Shown in pieces: positions 26,086-64,000 of a stretch of DNA of 64,000 nt. Each line of letters begins with the position of its first letter. Position 1 is the stretch's first letter. This DNA comes from Octopus vulgaris (taxonomy: Eukaryota): NCBI GenBank assembly GCA_951406725.2, contig OX597833.1:48422001-48486000 (forward strand). Direction: 5' to 3'. The notes beneath the pieces are model-generated. The model did no database searches and was not told where the DNA came from. It saw only the letters and a list, made by a program, of their open reading frames with translations. The position numbers were made by a program, and so were the translations under genes.

Positions 26086-26296
26086 GAAGTTAATTATATG
26101 CAGTTACATGCCAGTGGTTCCAGTGAAAGCAGCAACACCGTCTTGAATTCCTTAGAAGCGTTGTTAACCAATATTTTCATCCCAGCAGCTTGTAACCATC
26201 AAAATGGCTGGGGTGAGCTGGACACACAACAGCAAGGACAAAAATTACAGAATAACTTTTATAATTCAATGTCTTCCTTTGTTTCAGTATTGTCAG
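26086..26296 (+). CDS. DNAH5: DNAH5-like exon D, phase 0/1
   Basis: tgacag|GAA...TCAG|gtatgc. Encodes EVNYMQL...LLTNIFIPA..GWGEL...FVSVLS. Confidence 0.92.
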
Positions 26297-26544: not shown

Positions 26545-26773
26545 GTATTTCTTTATTACCCACAAGGGGTTAAACATAGAGTGGACAAACAAGGACAGAC
26601 AAAGGGATTAAGTCGATTACATCGACCCCAGTGCGTAACTGGTACTTAATTTATCGACCCCGATAGGAGGAAAGGCAAAGTCGACCTCGGTGGAATTTGA
26701 ACTCAGAACGTAACGGCAGATGAAATACGGCTACGCATTTCGCCCGGCGTGCTAACGTTTCTGCCAGCTCGCC
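26545..26773 (-). mobile_element. SINE family B
   Basis: Full copy. Confidence 0.8.
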
Positions 26774-27594
26774 ATATATACACAGGCATGCAGGAAGTAA
26801 ATAGAAACCTTTAATTTTCAAAATCTTTTATTTGATATTAATTGGTTTAAGGAAAAGTTTTCTTCTAGCTGCTCGTCCATAATACCTAAGCTATGTATAA
26901 ATAATATTTGTGTATGTATGTTTGTCTGTCCCCTTTCCTTGACACCATGTGATTGTTATAAAGGGATGTCATTCATTAGCAATATTCCGTGAAAACATGT
27001 CTGGCAATACGGATATAGTACCTTCCTTGGAATCACGTGAGCGTTGGCAATATATATATATATATATAATTATAATTGAGGGAATATAAATCCAAACTTA
27101 CAGGGAAAAAAAATTCAATTTAGAAATACTAAATCAAATTTCACACGATATAATATATATATATATAAAAAAATAGAAAAAAACCCACCTTTTATCAATT
27201 CAAAATGAACAATTAAATTACACCATCCAGAAAATTACATATATTAGAAATATTAAAATTAAAATAACAAGAAAATTTCAATAAAGTTTCAATAAAATTT
27301 CAATGATTATTTAAATCCTTCAAATTTTTCTGGGTTCATAGGATTAGGATTATGCTCAAGGTGGTTATAATCCTATAGCTGAGAGAATAATTGATGGTTT
27401 GATAACTAAGATCAACGAAATGAATTTGACCACTAAGATGTGTTAAGTAACATGTGCTTAACAGAACACACACATATGGCCTTAAGATTAAATGAAATAA
27501 TGGTTCCAATGAAAATGGGAATAATGGGACAAAAATAAAAACTATAATAAATCTTTGCAAACAGGTCTTCCTTTCATCATAAACTGGTGATTAC

Positions 27595-27639
27595 CGTACG
27601 TTGACAAGAGGCAAATACCTCGAAACTGCAGTCCGTACG
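27595..27639 (+). ncRNA. Minimal type-I hammerhead ribozyme motif, U3-A8 core variant
   Basis: CGTACG-TTGACAA-GAGG(caaata)CCTC-GAAA-CTGCAG-TC-CGTACG: all three stems pair, with a GUC cleavage triplet. Confidence 0.75.
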
Positions 27640-27880
27640 TATCGCTTAGGTTTACGAGAGAGAGATGACCTCCCTTTGCAAATACCATAAGAGCACAGAA
27701 AGTGTGCCTAAAGCCAGCTGGAGACGATGATCTCCTGGGGCTAAAAGCTACAGTAACACCCACCCTTTGTGGTTAGCCATATTGAGATGGCTAGTATACT
27801 TTACGTTAATAAAAGCTATGTTAATAAGCAAATAAATTTACATCCTTTTACAATTTTGTATGTTAAATATCATTTGACAG

Positions 27881-28044
27881 GTGCCCAAGATAGTCTTGGA
27901 GAAAAGGTGACATTGCAACATTTCAAACCAATGAGCAGTTTGCAAACATTCACAGCTTCTGGGTATGTGGCTATTGCAAATAGTGGTGAAGCATTGGAAG
28001 AAATTGAAAACATCATTAAAATTTGGATAAAGCAAGTTGAACAG
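27881..28044 (+). CDS. DNAH5: DNAH5-like exon E, phase 1/0
   Basis: tgacag|GT...CAG|gtgtgt. Encodes GAQDSLGEKVTL...IKIWIKQVEQ. Confidence 0.93.
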
Positions 28045-28816
28045 GTGTGTTTCATTCTATGAAAAATAATGCTGTTGTTGTGTTTATTATGTGAGCTAGG
28101 CTTTGAAAATATTATCATTATAAGCTCTTTCATAGTGTTACTTATAAATAAAAGTTACACCTGAAAGTAAAAGACAATTTTATATAATCGTTTACACTGA
28201 TGACATGGTTTGCGAATAATTCAAAGTCATACATTTCAAAAATCATCCCTTCTGCTATTACTACCTCCACCATCATCATTGCTTTCACCATCACTACTGC
28301 TATTAGATACAATGGTAGGAGAGACAGCCACTGTTATCGTCGTCATCATCATCATCATCATCATCATCATTATTGTCATTGTTGTCGTCATCGTCATCAC
28401 CACCACCACCACCACCACCATCACCACCACCATCATCATCACCTTTATCATCATTCTTACAATCATATTACTACCATTATATTTGATGTCAATTTTTCTA
28501 AACAATCTCTCCTTTTTTAAACAGTCTAGAACCATTAGAGATCTCTTCTAAACATTTCCTCAACTATACCCAGTGCAGCAGGCGTTTTCGTTACAAACTA
28601 AGAAATATTTAATACCCAAGCAACTCTTAAATATATATATATATATATGTTTGTTCCTCCTTGAGCCATGCCTGGCTCACAAGGGCTGGTTTCCCAGTTT
28701 CCTTGGCTTATAGGTTCCCCATCTGTCAGTTTTTCGAAATCAGTGGCAGACGCCACTAGAAAAACTCTTATATATTTACAAGGAAGCCTTCACTTTCGTC
28801 GCATCCTGGTGGTTAC

Positions 28817-28859
28817 CGCCCGTTGACAAGGGACAAAAATCCCGAAACTAATCCGAGCG
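28817..28859 (+). ncRNA. Hammerhead motif, homologous second copy (slightly decayed)
   Basis: CGCCCG-TTGACAA-GGGA(caaaaa)TCCC-GAAA-CTAA-TC-CGAGCG. Confidence 0.6.
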
Positions 28860-31692
28860 TATCACTCAGGCTTGCGAGGAAGGGATGGCCTCCCTTTGCA
28901 AATACTTCAAGGGCACTGATATGGTGTCTAAAGCCAGCTAGAGACGACGATCTCTTGGGGCTATAAAGCTACAGTAACACCCCCTCCCCTATGTGGTTAG
29001 CCATGATAAGATGGCTTCTATACTTTACATTATCGAGCGATTACTGTTTCAATCTCATTCTGAGATTTAATTATGCCTATATATATATATATATTTGAAA
29101 AAAGAAAAAGTATGACTTCACTGGCAGTTCTAATCAGTTTAATTTATTAGTTTTTCAGTTTTTAATAATATAAATTTTAGTTCATATATATATATATATA
29201 TATGCATAACTGGTACTTATTTAATCAACCTCAAAAGGATGAAAGGAAAAGTCGACCCTGTTGGAATTTGAACTCAGAATGAAATACCACTAAGCATTTC
29301 ACCTAGCGTACTAACAATACTCCAGGCTTGCCCCTTTTTCCTCTTAACAAATAACAGCCTTCACTCAACATCCATGTGAATACCTTTTCAATTAGTTTCT
29401 GCTTAGTATAATGTTCTCTTTCAAAACCACAATTTTTTCTAAACAGCCTCTCTTTTTCTAAACAATCTGTCCTTTTCTAAACAGTCTAGAGCTCTTCTAA
29501 ATATTTCCTCAGCTACACTCAGTACAAAAAGCATTTTCTGTAAAACTAAAAAAATATTTTATCCCTAAGTAACTCTTAAGTATATACCATACAATATATT
29601 GGTTTCAAATTTTGGCACAAAGCCAGCAGTTTCAGAGAAATTTCTTAGAAGGAGAACAGGTGATTATATGAACCCCAATTCATGACAGATATTTCATTTG
29701 ATTAACCCTGTAGGGATAAAAGGTAAAACGACCCAATTGGGATTTGAACTCAGACTGAAAAAAGATTCAGAACAAATATCATAAAGTCATTTGATGTTCT
29801 AATAATTTGGACAACCCACCATGCTACCCTTATTAAATAATAAATTATGACTAATCTATGGTTTAATCTTGTACACGTAACTCATTTTGGCCAACGGCTT
29901 TTATTTTCAGTAATTGAATATTCAGCAGAAAAAGTAATGTCAAAACATGCTGCTTATCAATTATTTTTCTTTAACAATCACACAACCTCTCTGTTTTCCT
30001 GTTGTCTAATTCCTGAACTCTTAGTGATATATTTCCTGTTGTACATCTTTCACGAGGTTCACAAATTATATCCTGTTTCCATAACATTTAAACTACAAAC
30101 TTACATTGTCTTACAGGAAATAAACGTATACTAATTTAAATTGACTATTTACTGATTAGAATCCTGGTTAGCATAATTTATTACCAACATAATTTATTAT
30201 CAACATTGGAGAACATTGCCTTCTCAATATATTCAATACTCCTCACTCGATACAGTCAATGAGGAGGGGAACCCCTTCGGTCATGAATGACAATGGGATT
30301 GCACTTAGAAAGTTACCCTCCGAGGCACAAGTCCGGGCAAGGTTGTTTTATGGAAGACCAGCAGTCGTCCATGCATACCAGCCTCCCCTCTCCACACCAC
30401 TGATGTTATCCAGGGGAAAGGCAAAGGCCGATACAGCTTGGCACCAGTGATGTCGCAACTCATTTCTACAGCTGAGTGAACTGGAGCAACGTGAAATAAA
30501 GTGTCTTGCTCAAGAACAGAACACGCAACCCGGTCCGGGAATCGAACTCACAACCTCACAATCGTAAGCTCGATGCTCTACCCTCTGAGCCATGTGCCTT
30601 CACTTACAGTTCAATACAATTTATAATTCAACACTGCAGTGGCACAGAAGCAATTGTAATAAAAATTAAAGTTCAGCTAAATTCATTCTCTAACTTCTTG
30701 TTTTATATGTTACATTTTTATCTTTTATCTTTTACTTGCTTCAGTCATTAGACAAGGGGTTGGCAAATCAGGGTCAATTACCCCAAGTGGGGTAACAAAA
30801 ATAAGTAAAATTATATAAGAAATGTGTTCCTTGTTACATCATGCCATTTTGAACTACAAACAATTTGGTTGCTATGGTGTTGTCAAGTGACTAAACAGAT
30901 ATTATTTGTCAATTATTTCTTTGGCTTAGTGGTTATGGTGTCAGCATCATGATCGTAAGATTGTGGTTTCAATTCCTGGACTGGGCGACACGCTGTGTTC
31001 TTGAGCAAAACACTTCATTTCACATTGCTCCAGTTCACTCAGCTGGCAAAAATGAGTAACGTTGCGATGGACTGGTGTCCCGTCCAGATGGGGACACATA
31101 CGCCATAGAGACCGGGAAACTGGGCCCATGAGCCTGGTTAGGCTTTAAAAAGGGCACATTTGGTAGACGGAAACTGAAAGAAGCCCATCCTATATATATA
31201 TATATTTGTGTGTGTTTTTGTGTGTCTGTGTTTGTTCCCCCAACATCGCTTGACAACTGATGCTGGTGTGTTTACGTCCCCGTAACTTAGCGGTTCGGCA
31301 AAAGAGACCAATAGTATAAGTACTGGACTTACAAAGAATAAGTCCTGGGGATCGATTTCCTCGACTAAAGGCGGGGCTCCAGCATGGCCGCAGTCAAATG
31401 ACTGAAACAAGTAAAAGAGTAAAAGAGTAATCAATCACACAACCATGCCTAGAAGAAATTACTTGTGAAATTGTATTATTGATAAGTCAAACATCAGACT
31501 AGATAATTTACAATAGTTATTTTTCTTTATCCATGTTACATGTTCATTTGATACTCCTATCTACTTAAGCAATTTAACCATTTATAAATCTAGGGCCATT
31601 AAAGTATGCACTTGGGATTAATCTAGTCAATTATATTTCTACTTTACAAAATTGGACTTGTTTCTGTTTTAAAGAAGAAATCCCTGTTTCAG

Positions 31693-42805: not shown

Positions 42806-43624
42806 CCCTTTAGTGTTCAGATTATTCTGTCAAATGTGATGTTTGGTTATTTAAAATGGTTTGAATTAATCATGCATTATCTTGTAGTTTAGAGATTTCA
42901 GTGATGTGATTTTTTAGTTTTTGAACGACATGGTAGGGCTGAGGTGAGAGGTGAGATCTGGTCAGTTTATCTGCGGCTTTATATAGCTATGGTAAGACCT
43001 CACCTGGAATTTGCATCACCGGTCTGGAACCCCTATCTTGCCCAGGACATCAATCGTCTGGAAGCTGTTCAGCGACGTGCAACCAAAAGAATACCCTCCA
43101 TCAGGCATTTGCCATATCCTGAACGCCTTACTTCCCTGGGCATGGACACATTGAAACTCTGACGTCTGGCAGCTGACTTGGCAGACACCCATAAAATTAT
43201 CAACCATCGCACAAACAATAACTCTGAGCACCTCTTCAAACTCCACCCATCTAACACCCGTGGACATATTTACAAAGTAAGAAAACAGCACAGCTCCCAT
43301 GACTTCAGGAAACATTTTTTCACGCTGAGAGTTGCTGAAGCGTGGAACAAACTGCCGGCATCGGTTGTTAGTTGTCGGAGCACTGCATCCTTCAAAACTT
43401 CCATGCTTCCTGAGATTCGCCAACACTACACCTTGATTTTCTCCCCTCCATACACACACAAGCATGTTCACTTTCCAGACATTTCTACATTACTGCATGC
43501 ACTTTATATGCACTTTCTGACAAGTTGTGGTGCACCTGAGCACTGTATACAATAATTTCATTATTATTATTATAAAACAGGTTAAATATTTTGGCCAGAT
43601 ATGGACGGTTTGAATGCTGAAGGG
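42806..43624. mobile_element. TTAA-flanked (piggyBac-type) MITE hosting the CR1 insert
   Basis: TTAA|CCCTT(T)AG...CTGAAGGG|TTAA. Confidence 0.6.
42960..43572 (+). mobile_element. 5'-truncated CR1/L2-group LINE (RT C-terminus)
   Basis: LYIAMVRPHLEFASPVWNPY..LEAVQRRATKRI..RKHFFTLRVAEAWNKLP, one internal stop, (ATT) tail. Confidence 0.88.
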
Positions 43625-46006: not shown

Positions 46007-46702
46007 GTTTGTTATGAGACTTCCATTTCATTATTTAAAAAAAATATATTTGAAGTTATTTTGTTTTTAGTATTTTTTATACATCATCATCATCATTAGT
46101 GTCATCATCGTTATTTATCATCATCATCATCATCATTATCATCATAATCGTCATCACCATCATTGTTGTTGTAGTCGCTGTCATCATCATTATCATCATC
46201 ATCATGAAGAATGATGATAAAATATTTATAAAAAATTGTCATTTAAGCTTCAATATATATATACTTTATTTAAAAGCAGCAGAAATTCAACAAAACCTGT
46301 TACTCGAAGTTTCACGTTCCTGGGAATGTGAAACTCTGAGTAACAGGTTTTGTTGAATTTCTGCTGCTTTTAAATAAAGCATATTACTCTACCCCTGGTA
46401 TTTGAGTACTCTTTTTTCCACCTTGTTTCACATTTATGTGTTTACTCCGGTATATATATATATATATAATGACCTCGAACACACAAGTGCAAACAAGAGA
46501 GACAGAGAAAGGCAGAAACAAGGAAAATGCCACTTATTTTTGAACTCTACACAAATATTCCTTTAAAAAAACTTTTCTTTTAATTTTTCTAAATTTAATT
46601 ATTTAATCATTACAGTTGAAAAGGTCTCAAAATGACCGAACCGGTACTAAAATGTTCTTTATAAAATTATTTTAGCATTTTCTATCTTGACTTGTTTTCA
46701 TA

Positions 46703-46734
<32 letters not shown>

Positions 46735-46787
46735 GAAAAAACAAGTCAAGATAGAAAATGCTAAAATAATTTTATAAAGAACATTTT

Positions 46788-46823
46788 AGTACCGGTTTCG
46801 GTCATTTTGAGACCTTTTCAACT
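46788..46823 (-). ncRNA. Hammerhead-like motif, U3-A8 core, weak stem I
   Basis: Reverse strand: AG-TTGAAAA-GGTC(tcaaaat)GACC-GAAA-CCGG-TA-CT. Confidence 0.5.
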
Positions 46824-46850
46824 GTAATGATTAAATAATTAAATTTAGAA

Positions 46851-46942
<92 letters not shown>

Positions 46943-47449
46943 TAGATAGATAGATAGATAGATAGAGTGCAAGAAAAACTGTTGAGAAAGAGGGTATTTC
47001 AGACAATCACAATGCAGAAGGATGGGTTCTGTTTAGTCACCAGAAACTAATAACTTTTTTTCACATAATACCCTCATTTGAATTATTAGGAGTGGATGGT
47101 ATTGTCTTACACTTGAAAATTCCAGTTACACTGGATTCTTCAGAATCTAATGTATCAAAAATTTCCAAGTATAATAAATGATACGTCAGCTGCAGGATTT
47201 GACTTCATTAAAAGGTGTGCATGTGTGTATGATGGGGTTATAATCCTAGAGTTTTAATTGCTCAGTAATTTATCCTCTATAACTACAATTTTTTTCTCTT
47301 AGTTCCGTTTAATAATGCACTTCTTGTAATTCGTTATTAATTTTTTTTTAAACTATATAAATGCAGGCATAGTTGTGCGGATAAGAATTTTAATTCGCAA
47401 CCTCATTGTTTGAGGTTCAGTCCCATCATGTGGTACCTGTGAACTAGTG

Positions 47450-63655: not shown

Positions 63656-64000
63656 TATTCCTTATATCTTCATTTAATTATTTTCATTCTTTAAGCAGCT
63701 CCTCTGTGTTGATAAAGAGCAATAACCCAGAAACTAGTATGCAGATGTTGTTTTGCACTTGATGGGAGTGCTGAGCTCCCTGTTCGAAAATATAAGGACA
63801 TAGATAGCGTGTCATGTAGCCAGCTAGAAACGATGTTTCTTGGGGCTAAAACAACGGTAACATTGTCCTTTTCAGGACAGCCTCATTATTTTGGCAAATA
63901 GTATTTCTTTTAATTTCTCTTAATCATCATCATCATCATCATCATCGTTTAATGTCTGGTTTCTATGCTGGCATGAGTTGGACGGTTTGATTGAGGACTG

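Follow-up and report, generated by a model that had tools for sequence, protein, structure and literature searches.

The window, a 64,000-nucleotide stretch of Octopus vulgaris contig OX597833.1, carries a DNAH5-like axonemal dynein heavy chain gene on the plus strand. Two homologous inserts on the sense strand flank one of its exons, here called exon E, with copy 1 in the preceding intron and copy 2 in the following one, and each holds a hammerhead motif with the stems and core letters of the original prediction. The homology of the inserts had also been recognised there; their extents, given as 27555-27810 and 28780-29030, are corrected to 27547-27807 and 28723-~29076. The features of the locus are as follows.

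26087..26296, plus strand: upstream exon of the DNAH5-like gene (human DNAH5 aa 158-216, E 6.9e-8; 5' boundary approximate)
27534..27545: left arm of a probable 12-bp target-site duplication of copy 1 (11/12 identical)
27547..27807, plus strand: retrozyme copy 1 (subfamily A), 5'-truncated, without a tail, ending at 3' site 1 (95% identity to the tandem-array unit)
27579..27657, plus strand: type-I hammerhead of copy 1, intact, with bulged stem I, stem II GAGG/CCUC and an 8-nt palindromic stem III
27775..27792, plus strand: hairpin 1 (GCCA-N8-UGGC), about 15 nt before 3' site 1, a candidate reverse-transcriptase recognition element
27809..27820: right arm of the probable target-site duplication of copy 1
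27881..28044, plus strand: exon E of the DNAH5-like gene, between copies 1 and 2 (human DNAH5 aa 212-267, E 9.7e-6)
28723..~29076, plus strand: retrozyme copy 2 (subfamily B), a near-complete permuted monomer with tail, ending at 3' site 2 and followed by (TA)n
28801..28877, plus strand: hammerhead of copy 2 (U3-A8 core from 28823; position 17 is C28853)
29031..29076, plus strand: Penelope-type tail of about 46 nt between the two 3' sites, with hairpin 2 (UCUC-N5-GAGA, 29052-29066)
63687..63895, plus strand: third copy, decayed, with U3-A8, about 72% to subfamily D

Further downstream in the dynein gene, 8/8 tested exon frames match Pfam DHC_N1; the same search gave no Pfam match for four earlier exon frames. 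An ORF-like stretch at 27342-27441 was considered as the upstream exon and rejected, the DNAH5 match belonging instead to the exon that ends at 26296. Two public runs, both guessed to be RNA, each have a contig that matches exon E and extends beyond the window; in one of these runs the overhang is closer to the last part of the upstream exon than to the intron, indicating splicing across copy 1. Contigs from two other organisms span the 5' junction of copy 1 (69 and 31 nt inside).

Several other repeats lie nearby. Very high-copy SINE-like pieces are found at 28650-28722 and 29203-29332, between which copy 2 sits, and also at 26632-26773 and 29596-29760. A diverged direct duplication (~76-81%; 28493-28637 and 29434-29586) flanks the copy 2 region in the intron, and frames resembling the C terminus of a LINE reverse transcriptase were recognised by eye in a dynein intron (42905-43552). 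On the minus strand, a degenerate hammerhead-like motif (46782-46827, E 0.11) lies within a long palindromic insertion (~46500-47000) that adjoins (TA)n and is perhaps the stump of another Penelope-type element. A loose hammerhead pattern has three matches in the window, a number within chance (7/100 shuffles reach three).

The core of copy 1 starts at 27601 and is complete, with U3-A8 as its Watson-Crick 3-8 pair, GAA, A15.1-U16.1 and an NUH site. Cleavage is predicted just 3' of C27633 (position 17), 247 nt upstream of exon E. The nearest other copy is 96.5% identical, and the divergence of copy 1 from its relatives (3.5-4%) is ordinary for the family. Copy 2 is 98.3% identical to another genomic copy over 353 nt, and no target-site duplication was found for it. 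It has a private change, G16.2 to A at 28851, where other copies in public runs have G; this breaks stem III and its palindrome, and the mismatch adjoins A15.1-U16.1. Among 70 parsed subfamily-B copies, stem III reads ACTAGT in 68, ACTAAT in one and another variant in one (9/141 copies overall failed to parse), which agrees with the earlier reading of ACTAAT as a decayed ACTAGT. Copy 2 is likely inactive as a ribozyme. The two copies belong to separate subfamilies, are about 80% alike and each have dozens of near-identical genomic relatives; they are independent insertions and not the functional pair that had been proposed.

The repeat unit is 355 bp long. Ten units that match at 99% form a tandem array on one contig (C4), dimers of 357-362 bp are found in subfamilies B, C and D, and the 2.8-Gb genome holds 1,000 or more copies. 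A 20-mer of subfamily A has 986 exact genomic matches and a control 20-mer has none. Subfamilies C and D were both reached via pattern matches; C is about 70% identical to A, and D is about 58-65% identical to A and B; relatives were gathered by pattern and similarity, so that distant subfamilies are under-sampled. No RT-like frame is found inside the unit, and no terminal direct repeats of constant length are seen in the insertion structures. The unit GC content is 0.43-0.48, and circular units are predicted to fold compactly (z -3.4 to -4.3). One type-I hammerhead per unit in tandem repeats within the 150-450 bp range, non-coding sequence, GC under 50% and duplications longer than 4 bp place the family, on sequence criteria, among the non-LTR retrozymes, and the prediction of a ribozyme-bearing non-autonomous retroelement family is borne out. 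No description of a U3-A8 355-bp family was returned by a search of the literature, the repeat libraries (Repbase, Dfam) lying outside its scope.

Family-like contigs occur in both runs guessed to be RNA; these may derive from any copy, and their depth cannot rank expression. One B-like contig in run X1 (window 28879-28983) has a depth of 751 and three letters not listed for the two DNA-type runs, and perhaps represents one strongly transcribed copy. At another locus (L317:1538-5996) a 1.38-kb tandem repeat has four units, each with a 311-bp retrozyme copy and hammerhead.

An 18-mer shared across the family has 5,042 genomic matches, and 46/92 of those sampled belong to a fragment-capturing Helitron. 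This non-autonomous element of about 400 bp (for example L112:1228-1637) has a TC start, a subterminal hairpin and a CTAG end, and carries a captured 64-bp retrozyme 3' fragment, a short inverted piece of the tail and an 11-bp duplication. The 64-bp segment had been considered as the mark of an autonomous partner, which was rejected on recognition of the Helitron capture. A further hammerhead repeat, family E (L273-L302), is old, with copies about 80% alike and mostly C3 and G8. It often has an extra base before stem II, has a palindromic stem III of 10-11 nt and shows the same inverted insertion style. Similarity of family E to subfamilies A-D is weak (E about 1e-4 to 1e-5 at the element in 3/30 loci).

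The hammerhead has a 6-bp helix I with a UUAC/UA bulge, a 4-bp helix II, a CAAAUA loop and a short palindromic helix III. Judged by sequence, this is the canonical metazoan type-I layout of retrozymes, as given in PMC4209133, and not the minimal pLTR form named in the original prediction. The minimal form is described in PMC4209133, in the part available, with a helix II of 7-8 bp, a helix I of 4-5 bp and an unpaired base before stem II; the present helix II has 4 bp, helix I has 6 bp plus an extension, and there is no extra base. In an alignment of 48 copies from A-D, 93.5% of cells are paired (27-53% in slid controls). Two-sided changes are seen in 16/19 pairs, among them every one of the 14 in stems I and II. 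The alignment has a covariation score of 0.53, compared with 0.05-0.14 when the partners are slid; the copies were hand-picked for a recognisable core, and these counts reflect about 4-6 lineages and not 48 independent events. The covariation expected from the two window copies is therefore found across the family. RNAalifold recovers stems I and II unaided, and all 48 aligned copies have the core letters U3, U4, G5, A6, A9, A13, A14, A15.1 and U16.1.

In subfamily A, stem III forms a palindrome of 8 nt; an offshoot of A has a different one of the same length, and B, C and D have three different palindromes of 6 nt. A stem that changes between lineages and yet stays palindromic points to dimer cleavage, in line with the original suggestion. 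Homodimers are predicted to pair fully (28/28 in A). Since the core pairs preferentially with GUC, the active monomer fold is predicted to lie 4.3 kcal/mol above the ensemble in A and 6.7-7.5 kcal/mol above it in B, C and D; this comes from two-dimensional folding that excludes tertiary contacts, which could help the A monomer. A heterodimer of copies 1 and 2 is predicted to keep 22/26 core pairs without a stable stem III duplex. Any cutting by copy 1 as a monomer would be weak at best. The loop 1 and loop 2 motifs agree with the consensus of Rfam Hammerhead_HH9 (RF02275) and are largely conserved, this being an agreement of sequence motifs in which the contact itself is not visible. Against that model, copy 2 scores 27.9 bits (E 4.6e-4) and relatives from D and E score 22.9 and 28.6 bits, all below the gathering threshold of 52; no match was found for copy 1 at E up to 10.

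The U3-A8 core pair was called a natural swap in the original prediction, and this is in print: PMC3088659, in the part available, gives it as a natural covariation and cites in-vitro activity, and PMC4209133 reports about 1,300 matches in Penelope hammerheads of S. mansoni. With a strict pattern, the genome yields 236 U3-A8, 79 U3·G8 and no C3-G8 matches. Descriptor searches demanding C3-G8 would miss the entire family. Five C3-G8 matches to a shorter pattern comprise one that leads to family E, one truncated A-like copy and three without family similarity at the motif. U3-A8 is commonest among similarity-fetched copies of A, C and D and makes up the larger part of B. A lineage with U3·G8 and U17 accounts for 29/70 parsed B copies, a share enriched by targeted search. 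In an unbiased A-type sample, an A-type U3·G8 lineage contributes 21/28 parsed cores. The core is broken in another A clade. A tree of 79 thinned copies, from which the A-type U3·G8 lineage is missing, nests both the B-type U3·G8 group and this broken-core clade (support 100/96) among U3-A8 copies. Two other views of the core were rejected: that U3·G8 is an ancestral intermediate kept in D, since D is mostly U3-A8 and the B-type U3·G8 group is nested inside U3-A8, and that U3-A8 is fixed in the family, since U3·G8 and broken cores were numerous in unbiased sampling. The A-type U3·G8 lineage (L307, L308, L317, L322, L331, L349) has a stem I like that of subfamily C and is possibly recombinant; L349 itself has C3-G8, possibly a reversion through wobble.

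The 5' end varies from copy to copy, and the 3' end falls at one of two fixed sites, about 174 and 220 nt past the cleavage site and about 46 nt apart. Among single insertions, 107/118 end at the fixed 3' sites (this includes about 7 Helitron-borne fragments; inverted counts are unaffected). A hairpin conserved in all of subfamilies A-D precedes each 3' end by about 15 nt, and the four pairs of hairpin 1 are invariant in 17/17 copies from these subfamilies. Head-to-head inversions are frequent, and in 52/55 classifiable cases their two arms end at different sites, one at site 1 and one at site 2 (P 8e-13 against 0.5; 9/64 inversions unclassifiable). The same arrangement is seen in 23/23 classifiable inversions (7/30 unclassifiable) from a fresh sample of 60 newly fetched, motif-selected loci, giving 75/78 combined (16/94 unclassifiable). 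Target-site duplications are mostly 10-13 bp. Duplications of at least 9 bp, some of which are TA repeats, flank 26/55 inverted (shuffled mean 8.0) and 16/107 single insertions (shuffled mean 3.5). The sequence past the 3' ends is 83% AT, against a background of 63%, and TATATA occurs within 20 nt in 51/107.

Two fixed 3' ends, a tail on one inverted arm and AT-rich targets with short duplications are together the pattern of Penelope-mobilised insertions, and the link to Penelope-like elements that had been drawn from the hammerhead is upheld by the fixed ends and one-tailed inversions. The optional tail on one of two inverted repeats is given as a Penelope hallmark in the available text of PMC3846280 and PMC8557442. 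According to PMC11167929, also available in part, a purified Penelope protein from a lizard cuts both strands of AT-rich target DNA and extends them, and it starts at two adjacent internal RNA sites without needing ribozyme cleavage. The insertion scars therefore indicate that the family is likely copied into new sites by a Penelope-like RT-endonuclease. In 47/54 cases the cDNA crosses the cleavage position, and some cDNAs cover it twice, consistent with templates that are circular or are uncut multimers. That 5' ends pile up at the cleavage site was rejected: the excess is not significant (7/54, P 0.09), and those seven junctions start 2-4 nt upstream of the site.

A young and abundant Penelope-like family is resident in the genome (L106:2670-5003; also L107, L108), with intact 778-aa RT plus GIY-YIG frames and a partial tandem and inverted structure; no hammerhead was found in it. 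Between this one resident family and the retrozyme unit no common sequence, hammerhead or hairpin was found. A GIY-YIG frame adjoining one retrozyme copy was rejected as its partner, there being no common sequence.

The copies flanking exon E are probably independent intronic insertions of a 355-base U3-A8 non-LTR retrozyme that is predicted to cut mainly as a dimer and is likely mobilised by Penelope machinery. The proposed cycle would start from the tandem arrays, which exist in the genome together with dispersed units; the hammerhead fold is conserved in the family. Array transcripts may pair two palindromic stems III and self-cleave at GUC, and the monomers would then circularise. As read from the scars, a Penelope protein would cut the two strands of AT-rich DNA at points about 10-13 bp from each other and prime cDNA at the two fixed RNA sites behind the conserved hairpins, one strand per site. 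One strand starting at each site would give head-to-head insertions with a tail on one arm only. Most cDNAs continue past the cleavage position, and damaged-core lineages have multiplied too, so that cutting is likely not required for the jump. The ribozyme step has a published result against it: in the available part of a 2026 preprint (10.64898/2026.07.22.740005), 8/9 predicted Xenopus retrozyme dimers did not cleave. Both copies in the window would be passengers.

A more tentative proposal extends this cycle. In it, a retrozyme lineage rebuilt around U3-A8 would preserve a nearly invariable record of Penelope priming on two strands. The two small hairpins may be the complete address for one cDNA start per site on a circular 355-nt RNA, and the series of cores, with C3-G8 in the older distant family, then U3-A8, U3·G8 and broken, may reflect repeated loss of the ribozyme once copies were mobilised from uncut RNA.

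Compatible with the preferred reading as far as mobility is concerned, and unlikely, is a vestigial hammerhead, its fold selected in the past and present lineages moving without cutting. The U3·G8 and U17 lineage nested in B, the core-broken clade nested in A (100/96), the 79 strict U3·G8 matches and the 47/54 read-through crossings are all in its favour, as is the finding, in the part of PMC11167929 available, that ribozyme mutants had no effect on in-vitro insertion by the lizard Penelope protein. However, nine core letters are invariant in the 48 core-selected copies of subfamilies that are only about 58-80% alike, and the core is complete in the young array, whose units match at 99%. Less probable again is that the unit is the pseudo-LTR of an unseen autonomous Penelope-like element and the copies are its truncated ends. 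Such an origin would account for insertion scars that are those of Penelope elements, and retrozymes are related to pLTRs in the available text of the preprint (10.64898/2026.07.22.740005), but long copies continue into a further unit and not into an ORF, and a pure 10-unit array exists. A tblastn search with the resident 778-aa frame against 344 loci gave matches in five, three of them weak, and the two loci inspected do not have a terminal-repeat arrangement: in one the neighbour is about 600 bp away, and the other is an old element holding a retrozyme insertion.

It is very improbable that a co-opted copy 1 cuts the dynein pre-mRNA 247 nt ahead of exon E, with an effect on splicing or output. 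The copy is in sense orientation with a complete core and perfect stem I, its 5' junction is bridged by contigs of the two other organisms, and 3/3 copies in the window are sense. However, the last is not significant, the monomer fold is disfavoured by 4.3 kcal/mol in two dimensions, a heterodimer with copy 2 is poor, and the 3.5-4% divergence is ordinary for the family. The intact core and the predicted cut after C27633 in the original account of the dynein pre-mRNA stand; the implied effect on the pre-mRNA is not supported, and spliced contigs cover exon E. Least probable of all is a SINE-like passenger of a LINE with inversions from ordinary twin priming: LINEs also give 5' truncation, inversion and target-site duplications, but here the unit encodes neither poly(A) nor a fixed simple-repeat tail, each outer end is a fixed internal site, the two arms share overlapping sequence, and ARAGORN found no tRNA-like head in four loci.

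The preferred reading thus remains that of a Penelope-mobilised retrozyme, with copies 1 and 2 likely passengers and not regulators of the dynein gene, for which the finding is likely of no consequence. The family matters as insertion-site evidence for Penelope machinery mobilising animal retrozymes; it names two candidate hairpins and two candidate start sites, and presents active-looking and damaged natural cores in one scaffold.

Among known systems, the HH9 amniote intronic ribozymes have the same UUAC/UA bulge, a CAAAAA-type loop 2 and the same intronic sense position. They are single conserved loci, whereas the retrozyme copies are young multi-copy mobile inserts. The minimal hammerheads of Cercyon in S. 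mansoni, as far as described in the available text of PMC4209133, share the U3-A8 swap and are likewise type-I, multi-copy and linked to Penelope; they differ from the canonical bulge-loop scaffold found here in their long helix II, short helix I and additional base ahead of stem II.

Penelope-like pLTR insertions (PMC3846280, PMC8557442; mechanism in PMC11167929; each available in part) show the same two adjacent 3' ends and one-arm tail, together with duplications of about 10-13 bp, AT-rich and (TA)n targets and 5' truncation. Unlike these elements, the retrozyme encodes no RT or endonuclease, and its tail is about 46 nt compared with their 30-40. No autonomous partner with shared ends was found for it, one resident Penelope family having been examined.

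The closest match is to the metazoan non-LTR retrozymes, as presented in the available parts of PMC7229834 (Cervera and de la Pena 2020) and the 2026 preprint (Li et al., 10.64898/2026.07.22.740005). These also carry a single canonical type-I hammerhead in each unit of about 350 bp and occur as tandem arrays and dispersed monomers, with GC under 50%, no ORF and a compact predicted circle, and the short palindromic stem III has 1-bp and 2-bp forms like those of the axolotl Amex1 and Amex2 retrozymes. They differ in that the present family has a U3-A8 core in four subfamilies, with U3·G8 and broken-core offshoots, and in that fixed ends, tail and one-tailed inversions are counted here, the circle being a prediction. 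Penelope mobilisation of retrozymes was proposed in PMC7229834 and is backed in the preprint by co-occurrence and pLTR similarity, with shared ribozymes among the published arguments; in the portions available, neither source reports a tail or one-tailed retrozyme inversions. Retrozymes and U3-A8 are already in print, as is the proposal of a Penelope link; what is new here, with good support, is a U3-A8 retrozyme with unusually clear Penelope insertion scars.
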